A stretch of 31,250 bases of DNA from a virus. Taxonomy: Duplodnaviria; Heunggongvirae; Uroviricota; Caudoviricetes. Positions within the stretch are counted from its first letter, which is position 1. Every line of letters begins with the position of its first letter. The DNA lies in IMG/VR virus record IMGVR_UViG_3300045988_100792. The stretch is one strand, 5' to 3'. Positions 1 to 27,075 of the stretch are shown here, one piece after another. Both the position numbers and the translations under genes were made by a program. The notes beneath the pieces were generated by a model that had not been told where the DNA came from, ran no database searches, and worked only from the letters and a program-made list of their open reading frames with translations.

Positions 1-99
1 GCTGCGTGGCAGTGGTTTAAAAACCTGATTGCACCGGTCAAAGCCACCCGGGACACCCTGAACCGTTGCCGTGACACGGGCGTCATGTTCGGGCAGGCA
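1..99. repeat. Terminal inverted repeat, left copy (perfect reverse complement of 31152..31250)
   Basis: Reverse complement of nt 1..99 is identical to nt 31152..31250 by direct reading; identity ends exactly at nt 100. On the + strand it encodes the T fragment AAWQWFKNLIAPVKATRDTLNRCRDTGVMFGQA in the wrong orientation for this end. Confidence 0.9.
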
Positions 100-1916
100 A
101 AAGGGGCGCCCCCCCCTGCCACAACCGGCCAGCTAATCACCCCGATAGCAGTCATAACAGCACTGCCAACCGTCGTGAAGATTGCACCCATTGCGCCTGC
201 TGCCGCGATGATGGCATTGATGCCGGTGATAACCGGCCAGGCTACAAGACCAATTGCACCGATGATGCCAATAAGCGCCAGCGCGCCACCGGCAATGATG
301 CCAATGGTTGACGCCAGTGATTTGTTTTTCTGTATCCAGCCGTCGAGTTTTAACACATACTTTGTGGCCGTCTGTGTGAGCTTACGCAGTGCGCCTTCCT
401 GCTGGTCAAACAGGTCTGTCCCTACCGCCTCATAAGCGGACTGAAACTCCTTAAAGTCACCGCCGAGGTTGTCCTGCATGATATTTACCAGCTCGGCAGT
501 CTTCCCGTCTGAGGCTTTAAACGCAGCGGTCAGTTTGTCCAGCTTTCCGGTTGAGGCGGCAGTCATCAGCACGGCGGCGGCTGAGCTGGCCTCCTCCCCG
601 AAAATAGTTTTCATGTATTCAGCCTGCTGGGCAGTACCGAGCCGGTTTTTCTCAAAACTGGCCTGCATTTCTTTCAGAATGGTAAATACTGGCCGGGTGT
701 TTCCCTTGCTGTCTGAGGTTTTCACACCAAGCTCTTTGAGTGCATCCCATGCTTTTCCCGTCGGTGCCTGCAGACGGCTTAACACGGCACGGCTTCCCGT
801 CCCCGCCATTGAACCGGTAATTTTTGCATCATGCAGTGCCCCGACCATTGCGGCGGTTTCTTCAATGCTGACACCGGCATTTTTTGCCACAGGTGCGGCA
901 TAGGTCAGCGCATCGCTCATGCCGTCAAAATCGGCGGCGGTTTTGTTCATCGTCATGGAGAGAACATCCCCGATATGAGCGACCTTATCGTTTGAAAGCT
1001 GAAAGGCGGATTTCATCCCCATCAGCAGGGCGGCGTTTTCTTCCATCGTGCGGCGGTTCGCCAGCGCCATATTCAGCGTGACCGGCGTTGCCGCCTGAAT
1101 GGCATCAACATCCCCACCCGCTTTCGCGATGATTATCTGTGCACCGGCCGCATCATCCGCCGAGGCGGCGGTATTATCGCCGAGCTGGCGCGCCTGTTTG
1201 CGTAGTGCGGTCATTTCGGCGGAGTCTTTTGCCACTCCGAGCACGGCCTGCAATTCTGAGTTTTTCTGCGCAAACTCATAACCGGGCATCAGCAGCTTAA
1301 CTCCGGCCATCGTTCCCGCAGCAGCAATCCCCACACCGGCAGCGCCCACTGAGGCCATATTTCCGGCCAGCTCCTTTCCGGCCTGATAACGCTGTTTTAC
1401 TGCGTTAAGTTTTGCCTGTTGTGCACTGACACGCGCCAGCGCGTCACGCTGTCGGTTAAGCTGTGCGGTGGTTTCACTGATACGGTTTTTCAGTCCCTGC
1501 TCATCATGTGCAAGATTGCGGGTATTAATTCCCACAGCGGCCAGTTCCCGCTGCTGGCGTTTAACGGAATCCGTCAGGCGGTTATATTTCGCCTGTAAGT
1601 CCTCCGCCGCTCGCTTTGCGGATTCCAGCACTTTCGCCTGAGCACGGGTCGGACGTTCGGTGTTTTTAAACTGTGTGGCAAGGGCTTCGGCTTCCTGCCG
1701 TGCCTTTTCAAGTGCATGACCAGTCACGGCGAGCTGTGCGCTGGTCTTGCGGAATCCCTCAATACGGGATGCCTGACCGTTCAGCTCGCGCAGTGATTTT
1801 TGTGTTTCCCGGATATCCCCCGACAGCGACTTACTCGCTGTGCGGATGGATTTAAACGGGCGGGATGCCTGGTCAACAGCCCTGAGCAATACCTGTAATT
1901 TTACATTGTTACTCAT
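100..1916 (-). CDS. T: Tail tape measure protein gpT, N-terminal ~605 codons (partial, runs off window start)
   Basis: Minus-strand frame open from ATG 1916..1914 (MSNNVKLQVLLRAVDQASRPFKSIR...) to the window edge; A/Q/K-rich coiled-coil then Gly/Ala-rich hydrophobic segment typical of tape measure; directly downstream of E/E' as in P2. The + strand ORFs 85..1281 are antisense to it. Confidence 0.85.
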
Positions 1917-2336
1917 TCGTGTTTCCGCTTCGCCGGAGCGCCTTTTCGCGCCATGTGATGAGTTCGGTCAGGCTCATGGGATACAGTTCTGATGGCGGCC
2001 AGTGAAATATCACTGCCACATCCGCCATCAGGTCATCGACCGAGAGATTTTTCGGAAACGTCACTGCACCGAGTTCGGCGACAAAAAACCGACCACCTTA
2101 CCGGCCAGCGCCACAAGGTCAGGCAGTTCCAGTGCGGCGACTTCCTGCTCGGTCAGCATCGGTGCAGTCATGCGCGGCAGCACCTTAATCAGTGCATCGA
2201 CTTCGGAGTTCGCGACCGCAGCCAGACTGACACCGCGCAGCGTCCCGGCGTTAGGTTTCATCAGCGTGACCTGTTCGATAACCTGCTCACCACGTTTGAC
2301 CGGATTGTCCAGGGTAATGACGTTTTCTTTGTTCAT
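1909..2336 (-). CDS. E': gpE+E' -1 programmed frameshift product (about 142 aa)
   Basis: Slippery T-TTT-TTG on the minus strand at 2088..2082 (codons G-F-L of E). Hand translation of the -1 frame from there gives VAELGAVTFPKNLSVDDLMADVAVIFHWPPSELYPMSLTELITWREKALRRSGNTNE and stop TAA at 1911..1909, overlapping the T start by 8 nt. 85 + 57 = 142 aa, matching P2 E+E' as I recall it. Confidence 0.75.
2061..2336 (-). CDS. E: Tail assembly chaperone gpE (91 aa)
   Basis: 91-aa ORF MNKENVITLDNPVKRGEQ... between tube gene and T; same length and position as P2 E; carries the slippery heptamer near its 3' end. Confidence 0.88.
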   Translation of the reverse strand: MNKENVITLDNPVKRGEQVIEQVTLMKPNAGTLRGVSLAAVANSEVDALIKVLPRMTAPMLTEQEVAALELPDLVALAGKVVGFLSPNSVQ

Positions 2337-2392
2337 GGTTTTCTCACTTCTGAATCGGGGTTAACCGGTCAGCCAGGCTGACCGGATGACAA

Positions 2393-2911
2393 TTACAGGC
2401 CGATATTGCGGCGGTGTTGCCCCAGCCGGTCGACGCCGTTCACCTTCTCAATCATGTTGATGGTGTCGATTTCGACCAGCTCCTTACCGTCCATCGTCAG
2501 CCGGAAATAGGTGCAGACCACGGAGATTTTCGACTCGGTGTCTTCTCCCTGTTTACCCTCGCCGGTGTCGATTTCTTTCTGACGTCCACGCATGACCACC
2601 TCGACGGCCACCGTTTCGCCGGTATCGTCACGCTGGTAAGAGCCTGCAAAACGAATCGGTACGGCATCCACACCGGTTGCGGCGTAAAGCTCCCAGATAA
2701 CCGAATCCGGGAAGCCACCGAGCGACCACTCCATTGACAGCGCATCATCATCAAGGCCGAGGTCTACCGGTGCGCTGCCGTTCATCCCCGCACCGCGATA
2801 GTTTTCGAGCTTACGGGTCAGTTTTGGCAGCGTGACGGACTTTGCAACGCCCTGATAGCTGTAGCCGTTCAGAAAGACGTTCATTAACTTGAGTTTGCGC
2901 GGCATTGCCAT
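2393..2911 (-). CDS. FII: Tail tube protein gpFII (172 aa)
   Basis: 172-aa ORF immediately downstream of sheath gene; length and position match P2 FII. Confidence 0.88.
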   Translation of the reverse strand: MAMPRKLKLMNVFLNGYSYQGVAKSVTLPKLTRKLENYRGAGMNGSAPVDLGLDDDALSMEWSLGGFPDSVIWELYAATGVDAVPIRFAGSYQRDDTGETVAVEVVMRGRQKEIDTGEGKQGEDTESKISVVCTYFRLTMDGKELVEIDTINMIEKVNGVDRLGQHRRNIGL

Positions 2912-2923
2912 CGGTCAGGCTCC

Positions 2924-4114
2924 TTAATTGCTGTTAACCGAGGTGACCAGATTTGCCAGGTATTTATCGGTAATACGCTGGCGCAGGGTCAGATTTTCAA
3001 GAGGAGGCACCGGGGTATAGTCGTAGTCGATATACAGTTTGCCGGCCTTGAGGGTTTCCGCATCGTTGGACTCTTCGCTGAACCAGCATGTACCATCCAC
3101 GATATAACCGTTGTTTTTCAGTTCACGGAATTTGGCATTGATGCCGTCAATGATGTCGCGAATCAGCGTTGCGGTGATGGGCTTATCAATAGCCCACATG
3201 TGCGCCTCAGCCATCGTGTCGGCCAGTACCTGCGCGGTGCGGGTGTAACTTTCAAAGAGGAACAGCGGATCATCAGAGCAGGTACGGTTACCCCAGAAGC
3301 GGAAACCGTCGCGGCGAATCAGCGTAGTGACGCCTGACTCGTTAAGCAGGTCAGCATCAGTGCCCGGCTTCTGCAAATCCCAGAAGACGGATGCACTGAT
3401 GCCGGTAACACCGTTCACCCCGACGTTGGACAGCGTTTTATGCCAGCCCTGCTCCTGGTCGATTTTAGCGCGCAGACCCAGCGCACGGGCGGTGGCATAC
3501 GCGGTGGCGGTGGTACTGGTAACCGTATCCCATGCGAGGAAATCCGGCCAGATGACCATCAGCTCACGCTGGCTGAAATTCTGACGGTAGGCTTTTGCCT
3601 CGGAAATGGTCTTACAGCCCCATGCGCTGATATACCCGAATGCATTCAGTTCCTGGCATACCGATGCCAGTGCGACGGCGACCTCTTTGGTGTCCAGTCC
3701 CGGCACGCCGAGAATACGCGGTTTAACGCCGGTAACCGACTCAGCGCCCATCAGGGCTTTCAGTCCGGTGTACTGACCGTTTTCGTCGGTGGTGCCGATG
3801 ATATTGGAAACGGTCTGCGCGAGTTTCGTTTCTTCGTCGTCGCCGGTGCCGTCTTCCACACGCACGACAACGGTGACCGGTTTTGACTGGTCAGCGATGG
3901 CCTGCAGCGACGCCGCCAGCGTGCCTTTTTTACCGGCCTTTGCAATTGCGCTCTGCACATTGGTAATCAGCACAGGTTTATTGAGGGGGAAGGTTTCCGC
4001 ATCCGCATCGCTGGCCGTGCAGACCATGCCGACAATGGCAGTGGATACAGTGGAAATGACGCGGGTGCCGTCGTTAATCTCCAGCACCTGCACGCCGTGA
4101 TGATAGTCACTCAT
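2924..4114 (-). CDS. FI: Contractile tail sheath protein gpFI (396 aa)
   Basis: 396-aa ORF MSDYHHGVQVLEINDGTRVIS...; first gene of the FI-FII-E-T-U-D tail operon; length matches P2 FI. Confidence 0.9.
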   Translation of the reverse strand: MSDYHHGVQVLEINDGTRVISTVSTAIVGMVCTASDADAETFPLNKPVLITNVQSAIAKAGKKGTLAASLQAIADQSKPVTVVVRVEDGTGDDEETKLAQTVSNIIGTTDENGQYTGLKALMGAESVTGVKPRILGVPGLDTKEVAVALASVCQELNAFGYISAWGCKTISEAKAYRQNFSQRELMVIWPDFLAWDTVTSTTATAYATARALGLRAKIDQEQGWHKTLSNVGVNGVTGISASVFWDLQKPGTDADLLNESGVTTLIRRDGFRFWGNRTCSDDPLFLFESYTRTAQVLADTMAEAHMWAIDKPITATLIRDIIDGINAKFRELKNNGYIVDGTCWFSEESNDAETLKAGKLYIDYDYTPVPPLENLTLRQRITDKYLANLVTSVNSN

Positions 4115-4204
4115 CCGTTTAACTCCGTGGTTAATGGGTGCAACTATTTTCTGTTGTGCAGAGCATGAGACGCTATTTGACCTGGCTGGTCAGGGGATGA
4201 AACA

Positions 4205-4233
4205 ACAGACAAAGAAAAGGCGGGTAATCCGCC
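4205..4233 (-). terminator. Candidate rho-independent terminator (minus strand)
   Basis: GGCGG / CCGCC 5-bp stem (4219..4223 / 4229..4233) with loop GTAAT, followed on the minus strand by UUUUCUUUGUCUG. Short stem, so weak call. Confidence 0.3.
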
Positions 4234-4624
4234 AGCCTATCCTGATTTGTACTCACTCATTTTCCAACTGACAATTTACATAGCCCAAACGCTATCAAAT
4301 CTGACAGTCTGCTTTGAGCGAAAAGCGGACATTTAGTTGGCCGGCTTAATTAGAATGTAGTGAGGAACTAGGAACTGGGGCATAACCTCGCAACTGCGCA
4401 GCCCACCCCTCTAAGAAAAGGCTCAGTGTTAATTGAACGGCGACGATATGCTTGACGTGCTGAAGACTTTTCAGTCACGCTCTGACAAAATTTTCGATAA
4501 AATTAAATAGTTTCAATGGTATGATAAATAAATACTCTGGAATCGGGGTAAGGCTAGGGTGTCACCACCCCGACTTCCCCGCGGTTAAAACACGCTACCC
4601 TGTATGGTTAAATATTGAGGATAT

Positions 4625-5380
4625 ATGGCAGCAGAAACAGTAGTCACAGATGCAGCAGGTACATTAGATACAGCAATAACAATAATAGGTTTTATTGCCA
4701 CAATAGCCTCATTAGTACTCGCCATTGGGGCTATTTGGCTTTCTTTTGTTTTTTATAAAATGTCGAATGAGGCTTCTAAAGAGACAACTAAAGCAGCAAA
4801 AGACATCCAGGCAAGTGTCGAACGACTGGAAAAAATATTTGACAAGTTATATTCAGATACATTCTCTATGATGAGAGATACGGTAACGGATATGCGTCAG
4901 CACATATGGAAAAAACCCCATGCAGGAAGCTCTGATGAGATTCTCAACAATGAAGAAAAAATAAACAACCTCAAGAACAGCATTAGTCAGGAAATTATTT
5001 GCATCGTTGATGAAAAGCTTAAGTCCAATGGAGATAATGAAACTAAAATCAAAGAGTTAGAGAGTAAGATCAAGAAAGTTCTTGATAGTGGAATACAAAA
5101 AACCATTCGTTCACAAGCAGTACCTACAATCTTAATGCGTCGTAAAGCACTAAGTCTGATAAGGCGATATGAAAAGATTAAAGTGGAAGAACTATTGAGA
5201 AAAATGAACATTCTGTTCTCAGAGGATCATTCTTTTAACGATAATGAGTTCATGGAAGCATTATTTAATCTTCGTGAGAACGGATGGATAACATGGACCG
5301 GCCCCTCCGGAAGGATATCCTTAAACGATTATCTTCTTTACATTGGCGATGGCGAGAAAAATAAAGAGGCCAAGGAATAG
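4625..5380 (+). CDS. Hypothetical membrane-anchored coiled-coil protein (251 aa); cargo gene in the Z/fun-type slot
   Basis: Only + strand gene in a run of minus-strand late genes. GAGG at 4617..4620 just upstream of ATG 4625. Visibly AT-rich versus flanks. One hydrophobic helix TAITIIGFIATIASLVLAIGAIWLSFVFY near the N-terminus, then a K/E-rich heptad-like region and a C-terminal globular segment. No family recognised. Confidence 0.75.
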   Translation: MAAETVVTDAAGTLDTAITIIGFIATIASLVLAIGAIWLSFVFYKMSNEASKETTKAAKDIQASVERLEKIFDKLYSDTFSMMRDTVTDMRQHIWKKPHAGSSDEILNNEEKINNLKNSISQEIICIVDEKLKSNGDNETKIKELESKIKKVLDSGIQKTIRSQAVPTILMRRKALSLIRRYEKIKVEELLRKMNILFSEDHSFNDNEFMEALFNLRENGWITWTGPSGRISLNDYLLYIGDGEKNKEAKE

Positions 5381-5572
5381 CTCGCAAAATTTCGTTATTG
5401 TAAAGAGGCCGCAGTGAGATAGATCCTTGCTGCAGCCATTTTCATGAAGCGAACATTTCTAATGAGCTAGACTTAGCCATTCACTCTGCCCGTTTTTGGC
5501 ACAGAGCGGACTGTCAGATTAGTCTTTACTCTGTGCCATAGATATGTAAGCTCACACCAGAGCTCATACAAC

Positions 5573-6100
5573 TTATTGCGGCATTTCCGGCCATTCAGGA
5601 TTTGCAGGATCCACACGACTGACCAGAACGCTGTAACGCTCCCATGCATCCAGTCGGCTACGCTCCTCATCTGTTGCCATGTTCAGTCTGACCGCGCGCT
5701 CCAGCGGCAAAATCACGGATTCAGCATCTGCAAGAAGTCTGGCTTTCCGAATTTCTGCCTGCTGCTGTAATTCCTCTTCCGTATAAATGCGTTTAATCAC
5801 TTTGCCGTCCTTAAACATCCAGTTCCCTGAAATGTCCGCCCGCCGATTAGCAGTAATATCCGCCACTTCAACCACACTTAATCCATCCGGTCTGATAGCT
5901 GTCACATCCTTTTCCACATAGCGGATAATATTATCTTTGTCGTACGCTATTTTTATCGTGTCATCAGCAAAATACTTTTGTTGTTCGTACCAGTTCTTAC
6001 CATCTTCTGAAAAAAACCAGACAACATCAAAGTCCTTTGTCAATTGATATTGTTCAACCGTTTTTGGATTACCCGCCGTAATATTTTTTAAATGCTGCAT
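5573..6100 (-). CDS. G: Tail fibre assembly chaperone gpG (175 aa)
   Basis: 175-aa ORF directly downstream of the tail fibre gene H; length and position as P2 G. Confidence 0.85.
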
Positions 6101-6103
6101 AAA

Positions 6104-8350
6104 TTATACCTGCGCCACGTTATACCATGTCCCGTTAATGTATTTCTGCACTGGTCTGTAATATACGCCACCAATGTTATCGGCAGAGTTTGAGCCGGTA
6201 TCCTGAACAATAATGCCGGTATATACGCAACCTGACGGAGCCTGATGCGTCCATGTAGTACCATTATTTGCTGGTTTATATGTAGATGCACCGCCCAGCC
6301 GCATGTCTCTCACATAACGTGAATCTGACTCAGCTTTGGTGTATGCACCAACATCTCCCGCTGAGGGTTTTCGTGTTGTGGTATAGAAATCAGACCAGCC
6401 AGATTCAAAACCATAACCATCACGGGCTGACCTGTAAGATATACCGCCATTTTTATAATTCACACGAAACTGTACAGCCGGGCAGCTACCAGCATTTATA
6501 TTAAAGTGAAGAATTAATGCAGATGCTCCCCCAATCAGAGCGTTGTATGCGCCACTGTCCCAATTCCATCCAACGGCTGTATCACCATTAACCGTATTAC
6601 CTGTCTGCCGAAGTGCAAATGCACCGACATTTCTGGCATTAAGGGTAATATCTCCAGAACCATCAAAGGCAACACCTGCTATTTTCCTCGGTGTTTCGAG
6701 TTTTGAGGCTGTTGCAGCATTTCCTGAAAGGTTAGAAATAAATGGATGTGAGCAGTAATAACCGCGCCCATTTTTAAAATCCAGAATAGCCTGTGCGTTC
6801 GTGCTTTCTGTAGCGGGATTAGTTGCCCCCCACTTATATGTCGTTTGACCGACGACATAATCCTCTGTCGGAACAATAACCGTTAGCCCTTCCTCTGCAA
6901 GAATTTGCACAGGGAAAGCTCTGGCTTCAACATAAAAAACACTACATACATCATCATCTTTCAGGCTTGTAACAATGGAATGGATTGAACGCTCATTGGT
7001 CTGATACGTCCAGAAATAACCTGCCGCATATGAACCACGATCAGTCCATCCTCCGGGCATAACCATGCCATTAAACTCGCAGTTATTCATTACATAATCG
7101 CCGTTATAACAACCAGTGGAAATAACGACGCGGGATGCCATTTCTCCTGAAAGGCTGGCAGCACGGCGAAAGATAACGGGATACCACTTCCCGGCAACGA
7201 CATTTGCAGGGGCTGCAAACGAATACTTTCGCATTCCCTTTTTCTTATCCACTTCACCTTTGCTGTAAACATTAATGTTACTCAGGAAGCGTTCTTTATC
7301 AGGAATATCCGCACCGTTCTGATCTTTCTGAAGACGTTTTTCAGCATTGTCATTGGCAGACTTCACCGCTTTTGGTGTTGCGGCCAGCGTTTCAGAATCA
7401 CTGTTGGTGGCGCTACTTAGCTGGACAAGACCTTTTCGCGCTGTGGTGGCATCCTGTGCAGTGTATTTCCCGTTAGCAAGGTCATACGCTGTCTTAACCG
7501 CCTTTGGCGTTGCGGCCAGCGTTTCAGAATCGCTGTTGGTGGCACTACTGAGCTGAACAAGGCCTTTTCGCGCGGTGGTGGCATCCTGTGCAGTGTATTT
7601 CCCGTTAGCAAGGTCATATGCTGCTTTTACCGCTTTTGGTGTTGCGGCGAGCGTTTCAGACGTGCTGTTGGTGGCACTACTGAGCTGGACAAGACCTTTT
7701 CGCCCCGTGCTGGCGTCCTGAGCGGTATATTTTCCGTTAGCAAGGTCATATGCTGCTTTTACCGCTTTTGGTGTTGCGGCGAGTGTTTCAGACGTGCTGT
7801 TGGTCGCACTGCTTAACTGAGTAAAACCTTTGGCGGTCAGCGAGGCGTCCGGGTGACGTCGTGACTGTTCATGTTCTGCAATTTTGTCATCAACATAATC
7901 CTGCGTTGCCATCACCGTTGTGGTGTCAATGGTCAGCTCCACTGAGGCCACACTGCTGACGATGATGACCATACGGCAGGTCTGCGAACGCCCTGAGCCT
8001 TCGGCAAGGGCAGGCTTATAACTTTCGGCCATGTTCGCCACGGCAATTAACGTTCCCGCATCATCGTACAGGCCAAGCTCACGCATCCAGAAACCGCCCA
8101 CCTCCGGCGGAATAACCAGCTCTGCGATAATATAATTACTGTTTCGTTTGTCCTGGCTGATTTTGTTCAGCGCATGTCGCCAGACTTCGTGGATAAGCCC
8201 GGTCTGTCCGGCATCCGGGACAGGCAATTTACCACCGCCATCCCCGACGGCCATCGTGGTAATGTTGACCTTCCGCCCTCCCGGCGCGGTTGCCGCTGCC
8301 AGCTTTGCTGCACCGGCAGTGGTGATAACGGTTCTGAATTTTGTGCTCAT
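6104..8350 (-). CDS. H: Tail fibre protein gpH (748 aa) with internal tandem repeats
   Basis: N-terminus MSTKFRTVITTAGAAKLAAATAPGG... typical of P2-type H; four tandem copies of a 44-aa unit (LSSATNSxSETLAATPKAVKxAYDLANGKYTAQDA...); Gly/Tyr/Trp-rich C-terminal receptor-binding-like region. Longer than the 669 aa I recall for P2 H. Confidence 0.9.
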   Translation of the reverse strand: MSTKFRTVITTAGAAKLAAATAPGGRKVNITTMAVGDGGGKLPVPDAGQTGLIHEVWRHALNKISQDKRNSNYIIAELVIPPEVGGFWMRELGLYDDAGTLIAVANMAESYKPALAEGSGRSQTCRMVIIVSSVASVELTIDTTTVMATQDYVDDKIAEHEQSRRHPDASLTAKGFTQLSSATNSTSETLAATPKAVKAAYDLANGKYTAQDASTGRKGLVQLSSATNSTSETLAATPKAVKAAYDLANGKYTAQDATTARKGLVQLSSATNSDSETLAATPKAVKTAYDLANGKYTAQDATTARKGLVQLSSATNSDSETLAATPKAVKSANDNAEKRLQKDQNGADIPDKERFLSNINVYSKGEVDKKKGMRKYSFAAPANVVAGKWYPVIFRRAASLSGEMASRVVISTGCYNGDYVMNNCEFNGMVMPGGWTDRGSYAAGYFWTYQTNERSIHSIVTSLKDDDVCSVFYVEARAFPVQILAEEGLTVIVPTEDYVVGQTTYKWGATNPATESTNAQAILDFKNGRGYYCSHPFISNLSGNAATASKLETPRKIAGVAFDGSGDITLNARNVGAFALRQTGNTVNGDTAVGWNWDSGAYNALIGGASALILHFNINAGSCPAVQFRVNYKNGGISYRSARDGYGFESGWSDFYTTTRKPSAGDVGAYTKAESDSRYVRDMRLGGASTYKPANNGTTWTHQAPSGCVYTGIIVQDTGSNSADNIGGVYYRPVQKYINGTWYNVAQV
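7362..7860. repeat. Tandem 132-bp repeats inside H (about 4 copies)
   Basis: Near-identical 132-bp units beginning at 7381, 7513, 7645 and 7777 (cggccagcgtttcagaatc... / cggcgagcgtttcagacgtg...), with partial copies at both edges; in frame, giving the 44-aa protein repeat. Confidence 0.85.
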
Positions 8351-8360
8351 TATTCCTCAC

Positions 8361-8891
8361 TTATCCGGGGTAAACCGTAATTACATCGCCGTCGTAAGCC
8401 ACACAACCGGCGAACAGGTAGCCGGGAATGTCCCGGGTAATGTTCAGGCCAATAAGGTGGCGACTTGCAGGTTTGGCATCAGCAATCAGCCGTTCCATTT
8501 CCTGATACATTGCCTCTGTGATGCCACTTTCCAGTACACCAATATCAAGCCGGAAGGTGCCCGGCGGGTCACTGGTTTCCCACCACTCCGTCACGTTGAT
8601 GAGATAGCCGAGCGGCTCCACCACACGCCGGATTGCACCTATAGTGCCTTTATGACAGTGGATGAAATAGGCATCGCGGATAACGGCGCGTTTTGTCGCT
8701 TCCGGCCACTTTTCATCCCACCTGTCGACCGAAAACGCCCACGCCAGCCACGGCAGCAGATTTGCCGGACAGGTGTCCGGGTTCCACAGCTCACGAATAC
8801 TGACCGGCGTTTTTTCAATTTCCGCACAGGCTTTTGCGGCGGCGACCTCAAGCGGTGATGAGCCGGTCGGCAGCAGTCGCGAATCACTCAT
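8361..8891 (-). CDS. I: Baseplate assembly protein gpI (176 aa)
   Basis: 176-aa ORF between J and H; order and length as P2 I. Confidence 0.88.
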   Translation of the reverse strand: MSDSRLLPTGSSPLEVAAAKACAEIEKTPVSIRELWNPDTCPANLLPWLAWAFSVDRWDEKWPEATKRAVIRDAYFIHCHKGTIGAIRRVVEPLGYLINVTEWWETSDPPGTFRLDIGVLESGITEAMYQEMERLIADAKPASRHLIGLNITRDIPGYLFAGCVAYDGDVITVYPG

Positions 8892-9792
8892 CCGAGCCTC
8901 CGGTCACGACGCGGTATTCGGTACAGAAAGACGCCTGCGTACTGTTGAGCACGATGTCGGCCAGTGGTGCTGCCAGTTCGACACGCTGCACACCTTCCAC
9001 ATGCAAAGCGGCATAAATGGCAGACAGACGGATGTCGCGCCCCAGCCGGTGCTGTGCCGTGATATACGCTTCCAGTTTTTTCACGGCGGCAGCGCGGATG
9101 GGTTCGCTTTCGGGACCAGGGTAAAGGTAAAGCGTGGCGTTTATCTGGTATTCAACGATGGCGGCAGACTGCACGGTCACGCGGTCGGCCACCGGCCTGA
9201 CGTCCTCACCATTAAGGGCGTTACGCACCACGGCCAGCAGGTCTTCGGATGCAACACCGTTATTTTCACGTGACAGCACAGAGATGGTGACGCAGGCCGG
9301 AGACGGACTGGTGACAGAGATATCCGCGACACGCCCGTCGGCACTGCGACCATGATACTGATAGGCACCCACCGACCCGGCGACGCTTAAGCCCTCAAAC
9401 GCCTGCTGAATACGCAGACGATAATCGGTGTCAGACTCCATCACTGCCGGTGTCGGCGGAATGGTCGAATCATCTGCCGGGGTGATAGTCAGGCGCGTGG
9501 TGTTGTAATTGGCACCAATCACATCAAGGTCATTACCGGCTGCACAGGCCAGCATCACCGCCCGTGCAGCCTCATTCACACGCTGACGCCAGATAAGCTC
9601 ACGATAAGCATTTTCCTCCAGCAGTTTGACGAGAGGCTCGGATTCCAGCGTCAGGGTACGGGCGACCGCCTCCTGCTGGTCTTCCGGGTAAAGGGAAATC
9701 AGTGTCGCCTTGCGTTCGGCAAGAATGGTTTCAAAGTCCAGCTCCTCGACCACATCCGGTGCGGGTAGCTGGTTCAGGTCGATAATCGGCAT
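8884..9792 (-). CDS. J: Baseplate wedge protein gpJ (302 aa)
   Basis: 302-aa ORF MPIIDLNQLPAPDVVEELDFETIL...; order and length as P2 J. Confidence 0.88.
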   Translation of the reverse strand: MPIIDLNQLPAPDVVEELDFETILAERKATLISLYPEDQQEAVARTLTLESEPLVKLLEENAYRELIWRQRVNEAARAVMLACAAGNDLDVIGANYNTTRLTITPADDSTIPPTPAVMESDTDYRLRIQQAFEGLSVAGSVGAYQYHGRSADGRVADISVTSPSPACVTISVLSRENNGVASEDLLAVVRNALNGEDVRPVADRVTVQSAAIVEYQINATLYLYPGPESEPIRAAAVKKLEAYITAQHRLGRDIRLSAIYAALHVEGVQRVELAAPLADIVLNSTQASFCTEYRVVTGGSDE

Positions 9793-9796
9793 GGTT

Positions 9797-10144
9797 TCAA
9801 CTCACAGGGATGGTTAACGAAAGTGGCTGGCCGGTGTCGTTGTGCTGGCCGGTCAACGTGACCGTCATTCGCCCGTCAAAGCTGCGCGCCGTGGTGACGG
9901 ATGACAGGGTGACGCGGGGTTCCCATTTCAGCACTGCCATGTAACAGGCGACCTTAATCTGCAACTCAAGCGCCGGGGTCTGCGGCTGGTCAATCATTGA
10001 TGCCAGCAACGAGCCGTAATCACGACGCATCACCCGTGAGCCGACCGGCGTGCGCAGGATATCGCCGATACTCTGGCTGATATGCTCAAGGTCAGTGACA
10101 GTCAGGCCATTACTGCGATTCATTCCGAGATAACGCGCTGTCAT
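9797..10144 (-). CDS. W: Baseplate protein gpW (115 aa)
   Basis: 115-aa ORF between V and J; order and length as P2 W. Confidence 0.88.
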   Translation of the reverse strand: MTARYLGMNRSNGLTVTDLEHISQSIGDILRTPVGSRVMRRDYGSLLASMIDQPQTPALELQIKVACYMAVLKWEPRVTLSSVTTARSFDGRMTVTLTGQHNDTGQPLSLTIPVS

Positions 10145-10776
10145 AAAGGACTCCCGGTTGTGCCGCCGCTGTCGCCGGGGTGTTTGTGGGTATGCAGTAC
10201 CTTACCGTTTGATGAGAGTTCACCGCCGGTGTGTTCAATGTTGCCGCGCATCGTCCCGCCCTTCTGTACTTCCAGCGTGCCGGTAATCAGTCTGTTGGTG
10301 CAGACCACCTCCGGGGTGTCCAGGGTGATGCGGGTTGACGCTTTCACCATGACCACCGGCACCGTGGCGGTAACAGAATCAGAAGCCGTCACGCTGGCCG
10401 TTTTAATTCCGCTTACCGTCAGTGCACTGGTTTCAGGTTCATACTCAATCACCGCCCCGTCAGGGAAACGGATATGCAGGGCATCAGACGACGCAGACGG
10501 CGCAGGGTTATCGCCGGAATAAATCCCCGGCAGAACGAACGCCGTGTCGAGTTCACCGCCCACGGACAGAATCAGCACCTGTTCCCCCACGGAAGGTGCC
10601 CACCATGTGCGCGAACGTCCTGCGCGATGGGTCAGCCACTGAAGCCAGTCGGTGCACATGCCGCCGGTCTGCACACGGCAGCGACCGGCGTTAAGGTCGG
10701 TTTCGACGATAACGCCGGTGCGGATCATGTTGCGCAGTGCGCGCGCGAGTTCCTGAATATTTGCGAGAGTGTTCAT
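10141..10776 (-). CDS. V: Baseplate spike protein gpV (211 aa)
   Basis: 211-aa ORF, first gene after the S-V intergenic region; order and length as P2 V. Confidence 0.88.
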   Translation of the reverse strand: MNTLANIQELARALRNMIRTGVIVETDLNAGRCRVQTGGMCTDWLQWLTHRAGRSRTWWAPSVGEQVLILSVGGELDTAFVLPGIYSGDNPAPSASSDALHIRFPDGAVIEYEPETSALTVSGIKTASVTASDSVTATVPVVMVKASTRITLDTPEVVCTNRLITGTLEVQKGGTMRGNIEHTGGELSSNGKVLHTHKHPGDSGGTTGSPL

Positions 10777-10842
10777 AACGGGAAGGATGCCGCCGGGTCA
10801 TACCGGCGGCAATGTGACGATGAGGTGTCGGGAATGGCACAA
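10777..10842 (-). promoter_or_regulatory. S-V intergenic region with perfect 8-bp-stem inverted repeat; expected position of late promoter PV
   Basis: GCCGCCGG (10789..10796) / CCGGCGGC (10803..10810) with 6-nt loop, directly upstream of the V start. Promoter call is by position only; no clear TGT-N12-ACA dyad found by eye. Confidence 0.3.
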
Positions 10843-11295
10843 CTAACGGTCGAGGTGAGACAGGATAATCTCTTCAATCATCTGCACATCCTTACCGGTA
10901 AAGCCGAGCAAAGGACGCGCCGGATAATCAATTTTCTTACCGTCTTTCCGGGTTTCTTCCGACAGACCAAACTGATGCACGCTGGCGATTTTCGGTGACT
11001 TCCCGCCGTAAAATTCCATTGATGCCTGTTCCGGGCTGGCGCGGATATGCAAAAAACGACTGGTGATAAGTTTCGCAAACATTTTTCGCTTAACGCGACC
11101 GGTCTTTTTTCTGGCGCTCTGCTGCTGGCGTGGCGCGTAGGGTGTGCCGTCCGGGGCTTTCTGTGCCATCACCCGACGCTGCTGACTCTGCCGCAGACGT
11201 TTTGCCAGTTCGGCGCTCAGTCGCCGACGCCCTGACGGTGACAGCGATTCAACCAGTCCGGTCAGCCGGTCTTCAAAACGCTTAAACTCATTCAT
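10843..11295 (-). CDS. S: Tail completion protein gpS (150 aa)
   Basis: 150-aa ORF; order and length as P2 S. Confidence 0.88.
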   Translation of the reverse strand: MNEFKRFEDRLTGLVESLSPSGRRRLSAELAKRLRQSQQRRVMAQKAPDGTPYAPRQQQSARKKTGRVKRKMFAKLITSRFLHIRASPEQASMEFYGGKSPKIASVHQFGLSEETRKDGKKIDYPARPLLGFTGKDVQMIEEIILSHLDR

Positions 11296-11755
11296 CCCAC
11301 TTGCTCACCAGTTCGCCATTGATATAAAGCTCCATCGGGCGGGTGACCGGCTCCGGCGGCGTGGGTTCCGGGATATTCTTCACATGCAGCGCACCGTCAA
11401 CCTCACTGACCAGCGTGCGCTCGGTCAGCATCAGGCTGATACTGATATCAAAGCTGCTGTCATTGTTGATGTCTGCATAAAACGTGAAGCCCTTTTTCTG
11501 GCCTGCGTCGGTGGTCATGATGTCGGGCTGATTTTCCCGCAGCCACGCCAGCACCGGCACGATGAGCAGGTCAAAATCACCGGTAAAGTCGGTCACAATG
11601 ACATTGAGCGTGTAACGCTTTTCGAATGACAGCGACGTCGCCAGTGTGGAGGCAATACTCCCGTTATCCACGAATATCCGCAGCATATCGGGGTTAGTTT
11701 TCAGCACCGTGACGGCATCAGTCAGCGCCCTGCGCAGGCTGTCGGGTTTGAGCAT
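11288..11755 (-). CDS. R: Tail completion protein gpR (155 aa)
   Basis: 155-aa ORF; order and length as P2 R. Confidence 0.88.
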   Translation of the reverse strand: MLKPDSLRRALTDAVTVLKTNPDMLRIFVDNGSIASTLATSLSFEKRYTLNVIVTDFTGDFDLLIVPVLAWLRENQPDIMTTDAGQKKGFTFYADINNDSSFDISISLMLTERTLVSEVDGALHVKNIPEPTPPEPVTRPMELYINGELVSKWDE

Positions 11756-12008
11756 CGTTTTCGTCCTGACAGTGTTTAATCATTTTTACCTGGCTGGCAC
11801 AGCGCGCCAGCGCGTTCTCAAGCTGCCGGATATCGGCACTTAAATCACCGTTCGTCTGCGGGTCGCTGCCCGGCATCGGGCAAAGACTCACTTTCGGGCA
11901 GGCGTTGTGGACAATCACTGGCATCGGTGCAGGCGGGGCGCTGGTGCAACCGGCGCACAGCATCAGGCAGGTCAGCGCCGTACCAGCGGCGAAAATCTTC
12001 GTTTTCAT
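11718..12008 (-). CDS. lysC: o-spanin-like outer-membrane lipoprotein LysC (Rz1-like), embedded in alternate frame
   Basis: ORF in a different frame overlapping the 3' part of lysB and the 5' end of R. N-terminus MKTKIFAAGTALTCLMLCAGC looks like a lipoprotein signal with lipobox-type Cys; Pro-rich mature part. Confidence 0.65.
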   Translation of the reverse strand: MKTKIFAAGTALTCLMLCAGCTSAPPAPMPVIVHNACPKVSLCPMPGSDPQTNGDLSADIRQLENALARCASQVKMIKHCQDENDAQTRQPAQGAD

Positions 12009-12288
12009 TCAGTAACCTCGTGATGGTTTTCTCGCGCTGTGCTTCACGTTTCGCGGCGTTCTCCAGCTCCTGACGCAGTGCCACCTGCGCCAGCTCGTTT
12101 TTGTCTGCCCTGGTAAGGGCAACATGAAGCTGGTTTTTCAGCATGGTGATGGTCGTCTGCTGTTCACTGGCGACGTTGTTCGCCCTGTCCAGCGAGGCGC
12201 GCAGGCTGGCGTTTTCATGCTTCGCCAGAAACAGCCCCGCCACCGCCAGCGATAACAACACGACCAGCACAATCATCAGCTTTGACAT
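11845..12288 (-). CDS. lysB: i-spanin-like protein LysB (Rz-like)
   Basis: N-terminal TM helix LMIVLVVLLSLAVAGLFLA followed by a charged coiled-coil region; downstream of lysA with lysC embedded. True start may be a few codons inside the listed ORF. Confidence 0.78.
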   Translation of the reverse strand: MSKLMIVLVVLLSLAVAGLFLAKHENASLRASLDRANNVASEQQTTITMLKNQLHVALTRADKNELAQVALRQELENAAKREAQREKTITRLLNENEDFRRWYGADLPDAVRRLHQRPACTDASDCPQRLPESESLPDAGQRPADER

Positions 12289-12701
12289 GGTTCCCGCCCC
12301 TCAAAACGCTGACGGCAGGCTTTACGTATCAGCCGGAAGAACACCGACGCCACAAGATAAATCAGCGCGGTAAAAATCCACCCGGCAGCGACCAGCGCGA
12401 TAAACGTCGCCACCATCACCACCAGAGCCGCCGCCCGTCTGCGCCACCGCACCGGCTGCAAAAACAGCGACGTGACAATCTTCACGGCCAGCGATTCCGG
12501 CGGCAGCTCCCGCCCGTAGCGTTCCAGCACATACTCAGTGGCATACACGCCGACACCACCGGCAACCACACAGATAACCGTCGCCAGAATCGCCCAGGTG
12601 GCGACAAAACTGACGGCCACGCTCTGCGGGTAAATCAGGGACAGTGCCAGCATCAGCGCCAGCGACACGTTCAGCATCAGTGAAAGGGATAATTTCTTCA
12701 T
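12276..12701 (-). CDS. lysA: Lysis timing / holin-antiholin-like membrane protein LysA (141 aa)
   Basis: Multi-TM small protein (LSLSLMLNVSLALMLALSLIY..., LVVMVATFIALVAAGWIFTALIYLV) between K and lysB, as in P2. Confidence 0.75.
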   Translation of the reverse strand: MKKLSLSLMLNVSLALMLALSLIYPQSVAVSFVATWAILATVICVVAGGVGVYATEYVLERYGRELPPESLAVKIVTSLFLQPVRWRRRAAALVVMVATFIALVAAGWIFTALIYLVASVFFRLIRKACRQRFEGREPCQS

Positions 12702-12715
12702 GGTGTTTACTCCGT

Positions 12716-13213
12716 TTAAGCCGGTACGCCGCCAGCGGTACGCCAGACGGTGACCAGTTTTTCCAGTGAATGCTCACGCTGACCGTAACCGGCACCCGGC
12801 AGGGACGCCCAGATATTGCGACAGCGTGAAATGGCGCGCTCAATGCGTCCCGCCCGGATGTCATCCAGCGCACCGCGTTCGCGGATCAACTGAATGGCAA
12901 GTCTGTCCTGTGACAACGGACTGAAATCCGGCAGGGCAAGCTGTTTGCGGTAATGCGGCCAGAACAGGTAAAGCTGCTGATAGCGACCGGAGGCCGTGGA
13001 TTTTTCACCGCGACGGTTAAACACCTTCGCCGGTCGGCCATGTGCGAACGGGTGGTCACTGTAGTCGGTGAAAATTTCCGGCTTCCCGTCCAGTCCGGTG
13101 ACTATCACGTCATAGCCCCGGTTTTTCGTCAGCGGATGGTTTGCCGTCCCTTCGGACACGGCCAGCATGTCGAGAAAGGCGGCGATATTCTGATGCGTGT
13201 TAATAACCGGCAT
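12716..13213 (-). CDS. K: Endolysin gpK (165 aa)
   Basis: 165-aa ORF downstream of the holin; order and length as P2 K. Confidence 0.85.
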   Translation of the reverse strand: MPVINTHQNIAAFLDMLAVSEGTANHPLTKNRGYDVIVTGLDGKPEIFTDYSDHPFAHGRPAKVFNRRGEKSTASGRYQQLYLFWPHYRKQLALPDFSPLSQDRLAIQLIRERGALDDIRAGRIERAISRCRNIWASLPGAGYGQREHSLEKLVTVWRTAGGVPA

Positions 13214-13494
13214 TACGGTTTCCCCCTGCCCTTAAAGCGGCGCTGAATGGCAATCTCAATCACCTGATAACCGGCGATACCCAGCATGGAGCCGATACCG
13301 CACACCGCAGGCAGTGACAGGTCAGGAAACTGCACCAGAACAACACCGGCAACCATCGAGACAAAACCACCGAGCAACATGCGCCCGATAAACAGACGCG
13401 GGGTGATGGGTTCACCACCGGCAAGCACCTTACCGACAACAATCAGCACCCCAATCATGAAAAGCGACAGGACGCTTTTTTCTTCTGCTGTCAT
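13213..13494 (-). CDS. Y: Holin gpY (93 aa)
   Basis: 93-aa protein with hydrophobic helices (LSLFMIGVLIVVGKVLAGG..., MLLGGFVSMVAGVVLV) and charged C-terminus; start codon overlaps the K stop. Confidence 0.85.
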   Translation of the reverse strand: MTAEEKSVLSLFMIGVLIVVGKVLAGGEPITPRLFIGRMLLGGFVSMVAGVVLVQFPDLSLPAVCGIGSMLGIAGYQVIEIAIQRRFKGRGKP

Positions 13495-13497
13495 GCG

Positions 13498-13701
13498 TTA
13501 CTCCCACAGATTGACAGTTTCAGCCACGGGCGCGGTCTGAACGTCGGGCAGTTCGACGGCGGTGCCGTGCGGCAGCACCGCGCCCAGTTCAGCCAGTCCC
13601 GGATTTGCGGCGAGCACGGTCTCAACCACGCCCTCAGTGCGCCCGTAATACCGGACACAAATGGCGTCGAGCGTGTCGCCCTGTAGCGCAAAGGTCTTCA
13701 T
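13498..13701 (-). CDS. X: Tail protein gpX (67 aa, LysM-like)
   Basis: Start taken at the internal ATG giving MKTFALQGDTLDAICVRYYGRTEGVVETVLAANPGL... (67 aa, as P2 X); its ATG overlaps the L stop. The listed 90-aa ORF is an upstream extension. Confidence 0.78.
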   Translation of the reverse strand: MKTFALQGDTLDAICVRYYGRTEGVVETVLAANPGLAELGAVLPHGTAVELPDVQTAPVAETVNLWE

Positions 13702-14210
13702 CAGATTTGACTCACGATGCAGCGCGGCTTGTCCTGGATACGCGCCACCGCCCAGCGCATATCCCGCCACAGCTCATCAATGGTGCTGTCAATGCTGTCG
13801 GCCTTCTTGTCGCCCTTGGCACTGGCATCCACGCCGCGGTAACGCTCATAAAGCGACGCGGTCGCCATCGCACACACGGCGCGCTCGTAGTAAAAAACTT
13901 TGATGCTTTCACCGTCGATGTCGTCCGCCGGAACGTCCGCCAGACGCGTAAAACCGGCGGCAATTTTCTGTTCGCGGTACTCGTACAGCTCCGCATTCGT
14001 CTCCGCCATGCCTGACTTGATGGCCTCACGCAGACGGGCGGGGGCGACGGTCTGCTCAAGGCGCATACGTTCCCGGACGCGCTTCGGGTCGATATCGGGA
14101 AAAAAGAACGTGTTTTTAATCACCGGCTCGTCGCCTGCCGGTTGCGGGATGACCACCGTACCCTCACCGGACACGGGAGCCTCCTTTCGCGGAATAATCA
14201 GCGTCATCAT
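13701..14210 (-). CDS. L: Head completion protein gpL (169 aa)
   Basis: Start taken at ATGATG 14210..14205 with AGAGG 5-6 nt upstream, giving 169 aa as in P2 L; the listed 189-aa ORF is an upstream extension. Confidence 0.83.
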   Translation of the reverse strand: MMTLIIPRKEAPVSGEGTVVIPQPAGDEPVIKNTFFFPDIDPKRVRERMRLEQTVAPARLREAIKSGMAETNAELYEYREQKIAAGFTRLADVPADDIDGESIKVFYYERAVCAMATASLYERYRGVDASAKGDKKADSIDSTIDELWRDMRWAVARIQDKPRCIVSQI

Positions 14211-14309
14211 GACTACCTCTGAAAAGTCGGGCGGTGGACGCCGGTGCAGTGTCAGGTGATTCACCCTCACTGACCGGCGTGCCGCCCTGGCGCGGGGCGC
14301 ATTCGGTTG

Positions 14310-15053
14310 TTAACTGGCTTTCTTTTTCGGGCGTCCACGTTTTGCCGGTGTCACGCTCCGGGTCTTACGCGTGGCACGGGTGGCCGCTTTGGGCTGCGGC
14401 TCCGGCTTCGGTTTCAGCTCCCGCTCCAGTCGTTCAATCTCTTTTTTGACGCCTGCCTGACAGTCGAGCTGTGTCGCACGTTGCAGGTGAGCCAGCGCAC
14501 CGGCGGCATCACCAGCGTCACGCAGAAACAGACCGGTGATTTTGTGCAGCTTTGCGCGCACTTCATCAGGCATGTCAGCCGTGGCGGTCAGTTCGAGGGT
14601 GTCCGTCAGCAGGCGGGTATCCACAGACTCACCGGCAGCGTGAGCGCGCATGGCCGCGAGCGCCACCTCCTCGGTGAACATGTACGGCGGGGTACGGCGG
14701 TGTTTACCCGGCATGGTCAGACCGTATTTCAGGGCATAACGGGCAATCTCCAGCGCACCGGCAATATCGCCGGTATCCAGACGCCACAGCATGACCGTCA
14801 TCAGAATGTCATCCTGTGCACCTTTGCCCTGCTCCAGCACACCGTTCACCCACGGCAACCAGAACGGCAGCAGTTCGCGCTTTTTCGCGGCCTTAAGCTC
14901 TTTTGAATAAATCGCTTTCAGTGTGCGCTGGTCTGCGGCGAGCTTAACCAGCATCTGCTCATAGACAGTTGCATGTCGCAGCGGGGCGGCTTCCCGCTGC
15001 GCGGTCATCGCTGCCGAGACCCGCATCATGTGGCGCTGTGCGGGACTCGTCAT
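14310..15053 (-). CDS. M: Terminase small (endonuclease) subunit gpM (247 aa)
   Basis: 247-aa ORF with basic K/R-rich C-terminal tail (PAKRGRPKKKAS); order and length as P2 M. Confidence 0.88.
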   Translation of the reverse strand: MTSPAQRHMMRVSAAMTAQREAAPLRHATVYEQMLVKLAADQRTLKAIYSKELKAAKKRELLPFWLPWVNGVLEQGKGAQDDILMTVMLWRLDTGDIAGALEIARYALKYGLTMPGKHRRTPPYMFTEEVALAAMRAHAAGESVDTRLLTDTLELTATADMPDEVRAKLHKITGLFLRDAGDAAGALAHLQRATQLDCQAGVKKEIERLERELKPKPEPQPKAATRATRKTRSVTPAKRGRPKKKAS

Positions 15054-15056
15054 CGG

Positions 15057-16130
15057 TTACGCTCCCGGCTCTGCGGTCGCCCTGGCCGGTGTGGAGAAAT
15101 CACCGACCTTAATTTTTTCCACCAGGCAACCGGCGGCGTAGTCTTCCACCACGTAATCAATATTCATTGACTCGTAGTTCTCCACGCGGTCGAGTTTCGG
15201 ATTTTCCTCAATCACGCGGCGATGGCTGTCATCCATGTAGTAGATGGACAGGTTTTCCAGCTTCGTGATGAGCATCGCATCTGCCGGGAAGTACGGGACG
15301 CGCACTGCCGGCAGGTTACCGATGCGTTTCTGGCTGATGATGACGTCAGCGGCCAGCATTTCGCTGTTGTCCTGTTCCTTGTTAACGATGGGGAAATACT
15401 TGTCCGCCAGTAGCTGACGTCCCACAATCACCACAAGGTCAGGGTCTTCCTGATACCACGGTTCAATCAGGTTGTTGGTCGCATCCATCACCAGTGCATC
15501 GAGGCTGGCATAATCACCGCCCTTACCCACGCGGATGACCTCAGAGGTGGTGTGCCCTTCCTCGTCAGTGACCTTGCTCATCACGCGCGCCGGGGCTTCA
15601 TTGCGGTATTTCTGCAGCCAGCCGACCGCCACATCCTGCAGCATCGGATTGCTGTTGCGGTCAGAGGTTTCGGCACGCTTCACGCCGTTAAAACCGGCCA
15701 TGATGAAATCAAGGGACTGGCGTTTGATAATGGCGTTACGGATACGGAGCTGGAAATCCTGATAACGCGCCCACAGGTCAAGCGTTTTGTAGCGGATATA
15801 AAAATCGAAGTTAATCTGGTCGCATTCGTACTTGTTTGACGCCAGCTTCGAGAAGTCCTTCGGCTGACGCTCGGTGCCACCGGCGGTGTCGGTGGTGCTG
15901 GCGATGGAGCCGGTGACACCGATGCCAATTTTTTCCCCTTTCATTTCGCTGACCGGCACAATATTGATGCGGGTCAGAAAGTCAGAGGACTCCTGCATGG
16001 TGTTCATCAGGGTCTGGGTGACCGACGGTTCAACGGTGAATTTTTTCGACACATCACCGGCGTCGATGCCGTTCAGCTCGGCAACACGGGACAGGTAGGC
16101 ATTAAATTTAAAGCGGGTTTCCTGGCGCAT
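15057..16130 (-). CDS. N: Major capsid protein gpN (357 aa)
   Basis: 357-aa ORF MRQETRFKFNAYLSRVAELNGID...; order and length as P2 N. Confidence 0.9.
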   Translation of the reverse strand: MRQETRFKFNAYLSRVAELNGIDAGDVSKKFTVEPSVTQTLMNTMQESSDFLTRINIVPVSEMKGEKIGIGVTGSIASTTDTAGGTERQPKDFSKLASNKYECDQINFDFYIRYKTLDLWARYQDFQLRIRNAIIKRQSLDFIMAGFNGVKRAETSDRNSNPMLQDVAVGWLQKYRNEAPARVMSKVTDEEGHTTSEVIRVGKGGDYASLDALVMDATNNLIEPWYQEDPDLVVIVGRQLLADKYFPIVNKEQDNSEMLAADVIISQKRIGNLPAVRVPYFPADAMLITKLENLSIYYMDDSHRRVIEENPKLDRVENYESMNIDYVVEDYAAGCLVEKIKVGDFSTPARATAEPGA

Positions 16131-16188
16131 AGTTTTTCCTGAAATTAAGGGTTAATCGTGAAGGTTTTCCCGGACTGACTGACGCCGG

Positions 16189-17043
16189 TCAGCAGTTCGT
16201 CATCAGGGCGTCACCGCCACCGCCGGTGGCCTTGCTGCGGCGCTGCTGGGTCAGACTTTCGGTGTGGTCGAGACTGTTTTTCAGGCGGGTGAATGCCTGA
16301 CTGGTTTCATCCGCCCTGTCAGTCACATCCTGCTTAAGTGCGGAAAAGGCGGTTTCCATCTCAGCAAGGCGCTGCTCAGTGGCGCTCAGTTTTTCCTGCA
16401 CATGCTCAGCGACAGCGGTCACCGCTTCATGCACGTCATTCAGACGGGCGTCATCGCTGGCCTGTTTGCGGCCAAAAATGGATTTCACCTTTTCGGTCAG
16501 GGCTGTGAACACGGTTTCAGGCAGGTCTTCAAATTCCAGCTCAACAGGCGTTGCCACTGAAATCAGGTTTTCAGGGCTTAATTTGAAGCGGTTCAGAGGG
16601 TTGTGTTTTGCCGTGCGGCAGAATTCCAGGTATTCCGTGCCGAGGCTTGCCGGGTCATCGGTGACGGCCAGACCCACCAGATAACATTTGCCGGTATTGG
16701 CAAAGTTCGGCTGAATTTCCATTGAGGTATAGACCTTCTGCGCGGCCTTGTTCATCGCGATAAGGTCATCGGTCGGGGTGATTTTCGCAAACAGCGCCCA
16801 TTTGCCTTTCAGCGCCGAATCATCGTCAATCTTTTCGGCCTTCAGTTCGACCACATCGCCATAACGCTTAAAAATACCGTCAGGCAGGATGCCGCGCAGA
16901 TGTTCCAGGTTAATGCGGCAACCATAGACTCGCGGGTCAAAGGTTTCGGCCATTTCCTGAATATCCTGCGCACTGATGACACGCCCGTCACAGGTGTCAC
17001 CCTCAACGCCGATACGAAAGAATTTTGAGACTTTTTTTGCCAT
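16189..17043 (-). CDS. O: Capsid scaffold protein gpO (284 aa)
   Basis: Start taken at MAKKVSKFFRIGVEG... giving 284 aa as in P2 O; the listed 306-aa ORF is an upstream extension. Confidence 0.85.
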   Translation of the reverse strand: MAKKVSKFFRIGVEGDTCDGRVISAQDIQEMAETFDPRVYGCRINLEHLRGILPDGIFKRYGDVVELKAEKIDDDSALKGKWALFAKITPTDDLIAMNKAAQKVYTSMEIQPNFANTGKCYLVGLAVTDDPASLGTEYLEFCRTAKHNPLNRFKLSPENLISVATPVELEFEDLPETVFTALTEKVKSIFGRKQASDDARLNDVHEAVTAVAEHVQEKLSATEQRLAEMETAFSALKQDVTDRADETSQAFTRLKNSLDHTESLTQQRRSKATGGGGDALMTNC

Positions 17044-17216
17044 TGTCAGGAGTCCTGAATAGTGATTAGAGGAGTCACATGTCGGCATCAGTTTCCCGAC
17101 GATGCGCATCTTCCGCCATCAGTCCCGGATGGCTTATCACTGACACAACAGCACCTTAGCGAATCGCGGGGCGCGACTCAGTAGCCTTGCCGTGTATTCA
17201 TCACGGCGAGGTATTC
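17044..17216. promoter_or_regulatory. Divergent late promoter region (PO leftward, PP rightward), Ogr-dependent by analogy
   Basis: Intergenic between divergently transcribed O and P, where P2 carries PO and PP. Call is by position only; no promoter elements were mapped. Confidence 0.35.
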
Positions 17217-20023: not shown

Positions 20024-20027
20024 ACAT

Positions 20028-20051
20028 CGCCGCCTGCGGGCGGCTTTTTTA
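20028..20051 (+). terminator. Rho-independent terminator after Q
   Basis: GC stem GCCGCC...GGCGGC followed by TTTTTT (20045..20050), 5 nt after the Q stop. Confidence 0.6.
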
Positions 20052-20193
20052 CACCCCGTCATCACGCCCTCACACGCTCACCACCGCACAAAACACCCCG
20101 CAGACACACCAGCGCCCCCGGCGCACAATCCAAACGCCGTCACGACGCGCTCAGACGCTGAAAAAATAAAATCAGCACCACCGCCAGCGCGCA

Positions 20194-20212
20194 GTGCTTT
20201 CCCCGCCTCGCC
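20194..20212. other. cos: cos cohesive-end sequence (19 nt)
   Basis: gtgctttccccgcctcgcc is the reverse complement of GGCGAGGCGGGGAAAGCAC, which I recall as the P2 19-nt cohesive end; about 170 nt beyond the Q stop, where cos lies in P2. It is uncut and contiguous here. Confidence 0.6.
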
Positions 20213-20337
20213 CGCCCGCTTCATGGGGCGGTTTTAATGCAGTTGCATGAGTCCATTAAAAGCACATCAGTACTGGCAAAATAAAGATGCAGAAATTAAT
20301 CCTTGAAGATGCAAAAAAATGCAACGCAACGCACCTC

Positions 20338-21036: not shown

Positions 21037-21134
21037 TTTCTAATCTCACATTAAAACCAGACACCAATTTTTGCTAGTCACTATTTTTATGATTGCCAGC
21101 ATAAATGCTGGCATCTTTATCATTCTGGCACAGT

Positions 21135-26045: not shown

Positions 26046-26108
26046 GACTTTCTCCAGGCAAAAAGAAGCCCCGCACGATTAAGTGCGTTAAAAACTCTGG
26101 TTAATTAT

Positions 26109-27062: not shown

Positions 27063-27075
27063 GTCGTCCTCTAGC

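Follow-up and report, generated by a model that had tools for sequence, protein, structure and literature searches.

The DNA analysed here, a stretch of 31,250 nt that we call the window, begins and ends with a perfect 99-nt inverted repeat, and we consider it very probable that these inverted ends were made by a de Bruijn-graph short-read assembler and are not a structure of phage DNA. The feature itself is almost certainly not real, the phage being an ordinary P2-like virus. The initial annotation had proposed an assembly artefact with palindromic contig ends, and this is now supported by the collinearity of relatives, by a junction that is absent from the relatives and collections searched, by a tape-measure gene T that can be restored and by a graph model which, at k=99, yields the contig exactly.

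In direct comparison nt 1..99 equal the reverse complement of 31152..31250 at 99 of 99 positions with no mismatch, and the first mismatch between the arms is at nt 100, beyond which the ends are unrelated, just as had been annotated. The loss of identity is abrupt and both arms are flush with the contig termini (base 1 and base 31250). A repeat search over the whole window revealed this pair as the sole long inverted repeat, the runners-up being 36 nt at 75% and 34 nt at 82%, while in 31 kb chance would produce ~1e-51 such perfect 99-nt pairs. The two arms are not equivalent. The right one (31152..31250, minus strand) lies inside the authentic C-terminal part of T and is collinear with T of the closest reference genome (LR595869.1), so it is the genuine arm. 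The left one (1..99, plus strand) repeats the right end in inverted form and out of place; it maps to reference 20286..20384 with its orientation reversed against the remainder of the window, and it spells T codons ~657-689 in sense on the plus strand, while T itself is on the minus strand. The earlier view of a right copy in its proper context and a misplaced left copy is thus borne out. The non-genomic stretch at the left end is 115 nt long, not 99, as nt 100..115 are likewise not reference sequence. Arms at the very termini with 100% identity, one of them out of genomic context, and relatives that are collinear are what is expected of a terminal inverted repeat (ITR) created by an assembler.

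A megablast search of 50,697 phage records matched both window ends to P2-like phages, the best matches being Peduovirus P22H4 (LR595869.1 / NC_049385.1) and Escherichia phage 9W (OM475431.1), at 99.9-100%. In the whole-record alignment with P22H4, which serves as our reference, window 105..20204 corresponds to 20129..30 and window 20204..31250 to 31332..20286, both on the minus strand, with 99.97% and 99.98% identity; only window 1..99 aligns on the plus strand (20286..20384), inverted relative to everything else. What we take to be the joined 19-nt cohesive-end (cos) sequence of P2, GGCGAGGCGGGGAAAGCAC, is matched exactly and in single copy at 20194..20212 (minus strand), where both ends of the reference also map, and what we take to be the 27-nt core of P2 attP is matched exactly and is intact at 28685..28711 (minus strand), between int and ogr. 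The genes are in P2 order and, with the 19-nt cos and an attP core placed between int and ogr, mark the genome as a Peduovirus. Judged from its sequence, the window is a circularly permuted, nearly complete P2-like genome opened inside T. Since the attP core between int and ogr is intact, the DNA is evidently in an excised, circular or virion form and not a prophage, and since cos and attP are both internal and intact, the window ends are not the natural ends of the phage; the real virion ends are at cos (20194..20212), internal to the window. Beyond the junction, just five scattered transitions separate the window from P22H4 (window 2421, 6256, 17260, 20504 and 27154), so its source is apparently a very close but non-identical isolate or sample. 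The P22H4 record LR595869.1 itself opens with CGTGGGCTCGGAGATGTGTATAAGAGACAG (1..30) and closes with CTGTCTCTTA (31333..31342); these 39 nt are not in the window and are presumably remnants of Nextera transposase adapters, joined straight to the two cos halves.

In P22H4 the T coding sequence spans 18318..20765 and encodes 815 aa. Its authentic N-terminal part, codons 1-600, is found at window 116..1916 (minus strand), collinear with reference 18318..20118 and identical in protein through ...VISWPVVA, and its authentic C-terminal part, the last 159 codons and the stop, is found at 30771..31250 (minus strand), 100% identical to P22H4, with the protein identical from AAWQWFKNL to the stop. Read in T sense, the order at the junction is the reference up to 20118, then a 16-nt filler (window 115..100), then the antisense of 20384 down to 20286 (window 99..1). 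Missing from the window is reference 20119..20285, that is 167 nt or 56 codons of T. The initial annotation had the inverted T codons joined to the N-terminal part of T in a frame-less fashion; the join is there, but the T frame stays open through the filler and the inverted arm to the contig end, over 38 junk codons without a stop. It had also predicted that an inverted duplication would disrupt T, and T is indeed split, with the 56 codons lost and the junk tail gained. Swapping window 1..115 for the 167 reference bases results in a circle of 31,302 nt with an 815-aa T identical to that of the reference, and 99.5% of this restored genome is present in the window. The check originally suggested, to remove nt 1..99 and add the missing segment, therefore succeeds in restoring T, but only if the trim is extended from 99 to 115 nt (99 + 16 of filler) when the 167 nt are added.

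The filler (window 100..115, minus strand) is a degraded copy of reference 20119..20134, reading GGGGGGGCGCCCCTTT in T sense where the reference has TGGTGGCCGCCATTGT. Ten of the 16 bases agree with the reference (P ~0.0016), and each of the six miscalls equals the reference base either one or two positions before it (joint chance 0.0055). [quoted passage not shown] Such lagging-strand dephasing triggered by GGC is known in Illumina reads, where it is reported to be direction-specific and to be a main reason for variable coverage (Nakamura et al., 2011, PMC3141275). The filler fits a product of GGC-triggered dephasing of this kind, as read from six miscalls in one contig.

The relatives have the ordinary arrangement. 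In ten prophage loci, taken from NCBI, ENA and JGI assemblies, T is 815 aa long throughout, and the loci are collinear and gap-free over reference 20000..20500, with 94-100% identity. Among 100 IMG/VR loci with a T match, full-length T is covered by one alignment in 75, while in the other 25 it is shortened, mostly where the fetched locus or contig ends; none of these 100 related loci has inverted ends. A look-up of the partial T product beginning at the contig end gave no record. No record spanning the junction exists among the 50,697 phage records, and the junction is absent from all 5,426 complete E. coli genomes, 942 of which hold this T region. Exact-pattern scans of viral, metagenome and genome contig collections returned no match either to the junction or to the 16-nt filler; in the viral contigs, which include at least 120 P2-like contigs, a control scan with the reference-allele pattern was also empty, because the only near-identical contig there starts 8 nt inside the pattern.

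Other assemblies also break in this part of T. The integrated-prophage contig IMGVR_UViG_3300028995_000008 (our loci L012, 1..11749, and L139, 1..11810) matches the window over 11.7 kb with 99.95% identity and ends inside T at reference 20126, with the correct sequence, 8 nt from the window breakpoint. At its other side (L139) it parts from the window at 28719, just past the att core, and continues 427 nt further in what is presumably host DNA. Reference 20089 is the end point of a second whole contig (L092), and one allele (L090) diverges at 20090. Given these independent contig ends at 20126 and 20089 and the divergence at 20090, T around reference 20089-20126 looks like a zone in which assemblies break recurrently. 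Sequence-specific, GGC-triggered errors could be the cause, or mosaicism of alleles. Polymorphism in T is densest at reference 18970-19800 and merely moderate near 20090-20130; a mosaic boundary is a possible cause of the break.

How could a normal genome be written out with inverted ends then? In the mechanism that we propose, the real molecule would be a normal P2-like genome, and the graph path through reference 20119..20285 would have been broken or lost, at a site where Illumina reads in the forward direction may dephase after GGC and where the related assemblies also break. A single erroneous read path would then fuse the degraded tail of a T-sense read, ending at reference ~20134, to antisense sequence starting 250 nt downstream (20384). 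The strand switch might come from a forward read to which its mate was appended without being reverse-complemented, or from a physically inverted chimeric fragment. A dephased forward tail followed by clean antisense would be just what a forward read plus its un-reversed mate should look like, and the implied insert would be a few hundred bases. SRA spots exported unsplit have this form, read 1 followed by un-reversed read 2; a literature search on un-split read pairs returned no citable statement. In a graph that merges strands, the switch path would attach to the same side of a k-mer (reference 20286..20384) as the true downstream sequence, and the whole genome would become a loop that exits and re-enters one side of one k-mer node. 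With short dead ends clipped from the graph, the loop would be output as a contig that starts and ends with that k-mer, in opposite orientations, and so has an ITR of exactly k = 99 (or k-1, in a node-centric graph with k = 100). Assemblers usually prune a path that has just one or a few erroneous reads behind it, and its survival here would need low local coverage, which we assume. The assembler and its k, the reason for the loss of the 167-nt path and the read-level origin of the strand switch are what we infer from this pattern.

We simulated the graph step with a small canonical-k-mer de Bruijn graph of the restored circle, in which the strand-switch path was copied from the window's own junction. 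With that junction supplied as input, k=99 and the 167-nt segment broken, the graph gave one long unitig identical to the window, 31,250 nt long with an ITR of 99 nt. The same simulation gave an ITR of 77 at k=77 and of 127 at k=127. The gap alone resulted in a linear contig without inverted ends, the strand switch without the gap in three unitigs with no inverted ends, and the clean circle in a cycle. As the junction was an input, the model shows that a gap and a strand switch together would suffice and would explain the exact length of the repeat, and it is not proof of the history. MEGAHIT and IDBA-UD are in practice run with a maximal k of 99, and a node-centric graph with k=100 would likewise give 99-nt ends.

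It is in the origin of the strand-switching reads, and only there, that the explanation just given has a related competitor. The switch may have been a physical inverted chimera, formed by template switching during multiple displacement amplification (MDA) or library preparation, faithfully sequenced and then assembled through the same graph step; we regard this origin as possible but doubtful. The form of the junction is a classic one, being inverted with a short intervening deletion (249 nt), and an inverted join with a deletion between the segments characterises 85% of MDA chimeras, which mostly link segments that lie within 10 kb of each other (Lasken and Stockwell, 2007, PMC1855051). Our join, from reference ~20134 to 20384, has this orientation, this spacing and the deletion. 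Moreover, a chimera formed before fragmentation could give several overlapping reads, and such a path would be better able to survive pruning. The complementarity at the junction amounts to a possible 3-nt microhomology (GCC, reference 20136..20138 against the start of the inverted arm), which is weak; 2-21 nt are characteristic of MDA chimeras. The hairpin potential of the region is also ordinary (z = 0.20), and on this local folding value a hairpin-driven fold-back was rejected. Template switching leaves unexplained the six miscalls within the 16 nt before the junction, every one of which copies a preceding base.

Replicating phage DNA does undergo strand-switch rearrangements, and the sample might truly have held rearranged, defective P2-like genomes with an inverted junction in T that the contig reports correctly. 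We consider this very unlikely. The arms have the length of a standard assembler k and lie flush with the contig ends; a true fold-back molecule would keep the 167-nt segment in its other arm, yet the window lacks it; T is destroyed, yet the remaining genome is only five scattered transitions away from an isolated phage; and the junction was found nowhere else that we searched. A narrower form of this idea, a sub-population of P2-like genomes with a real fold-back rearrangement at the GGC-rich site in T, is extremely improbable to us. If it were true, the site would be a recurrent hotspot of breakage or template switching, and the ends of independent assemblies at this place would then be explained as well.

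Still less can be said for the 99-nt repeat as the genuine ITR of a linear replicon of the protein-primed phage type, to which we give next to no credence: the contig formally passes the rule of CheckV and MetaVR that an ITR of at least 20-21 bp marks a putatively complete genome, but it is a P2-type genome with joined cos and attP inside it, the supposed ends fall within an essential gene that lacks 56 codons, phages that are 99.97-99.98% identical to it end at cos and have their T intact, and by CheckV's own account only 33.2% of ITR contigs are of high quality. The internal cos at 20194..20212 together with the split T refutes an ITR-ended linear genome, and the genes annotated in the near-identical reference include a P2-type replication protein and terminase and include neither a terminal protein nor a protein-primed DNA polymerase. 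An invertible segment of the Gin/Cin/Hin type is likewise excluded, as the arms are at the contig ends, one of them stands in for 167 nt of T and the near-identical reference has no annotated invertase.

Apart from the junction, the window carries accessory regions and repeats. A 251-aa accessory ORF (4625..5380) sits between the tail-fibre assembly gene and the tail sheath gene FI, which is the Z/fun position of P2; it is flanked by an inverted repeat pair (4298..4331 / 5487..5520; 34 nt, 82% complementary) and is unchanged in many E. coli prophages, and a look-up of it yielded prophage contigs only. Three further accessory ORFs (20338..21036, 21135..21908 and 22296..22784, all on the minus strand) lie between cos and the replication gene, at the old/tin position. 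The old/tin region of P2 is a hotspot for defence genes, and these ORFs could be uncharacterised cargo. Pfam and PADLOC scans, which covered five accessory ORFs, were uninformative for four of them. The 251-aa ORF has no Pfam match above threshold and no PADLOC match, two of the three ORFs at the old/tin position have no match in Pfam or PADLOC, and the third contains DUF3850/ASCH and DUF7415 domains. The tail-fibre gene (6104..8350, minus strand) has internal direct repeats at 7361..7831, where ~340-nt copies with ~89% identity are offset by 132 nt and therefore represent a tandem repeat with a unit of ~132 nt.

What is at stake in practice is the completeness of the genome. For CheckV and MetaVR an ITR that reaches 20-21 bp points to a putatively complete genome, although CheckV urges caution with such contigs. 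By rules based on ITRs the contig would be labelled "ITR, putatively complete", while in fact it is without 167 nt of real sequence, has 115 spurious nt added and has its essential T split into two partial products, one of them with a junk tail. An ITR length equal to a common assembler k, combined with one arm out of context, would be a simple flag for this class of error, and the existence of such a class agrees with the rate of about one third reported by CheckV for high quality among ITR contigs.

The records closest to the window, P22H4 and Escherichia phage 9W, share with it a near-identical genome, the gene order and all of T, U, D, ogr, int, cos and attP; they differ in being linear from cos with an intact 815-aa T, whereas the window is permuted and carries the loss and the spurious bases described above. 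The miscalls before the junction have the same pattern as the GGC-triggered errors of Illumina reads (Nakamura et al., 2011, PMC3141275), but are just six in number and come from one contig. Compared with the inverted "mirror-image" chimeras of MDA (PMC1855051), the error-laden 16 nt before the junction are atypical of the class, and the 99-nt length would be set by the assembler; "mirror-image" artefacts have also been noted in the curation of Borg genomes (PMC11208441). With the k-length direct repeats that de Bruijn assemblers leave on contigs of circular genomes, the inverted ends have in common that the repeat stands at both termini, would have the length k (which it tracks in the simulation), holds no biological information and has one copy to be trimmed. 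They differ in orientation, which would result from re-entry on the same side of a k-mer after a strand switch, and in the loss of 167 nt of real sequence, so that simple trimming, which suffices for the direct repeats, fails to close the genome here.
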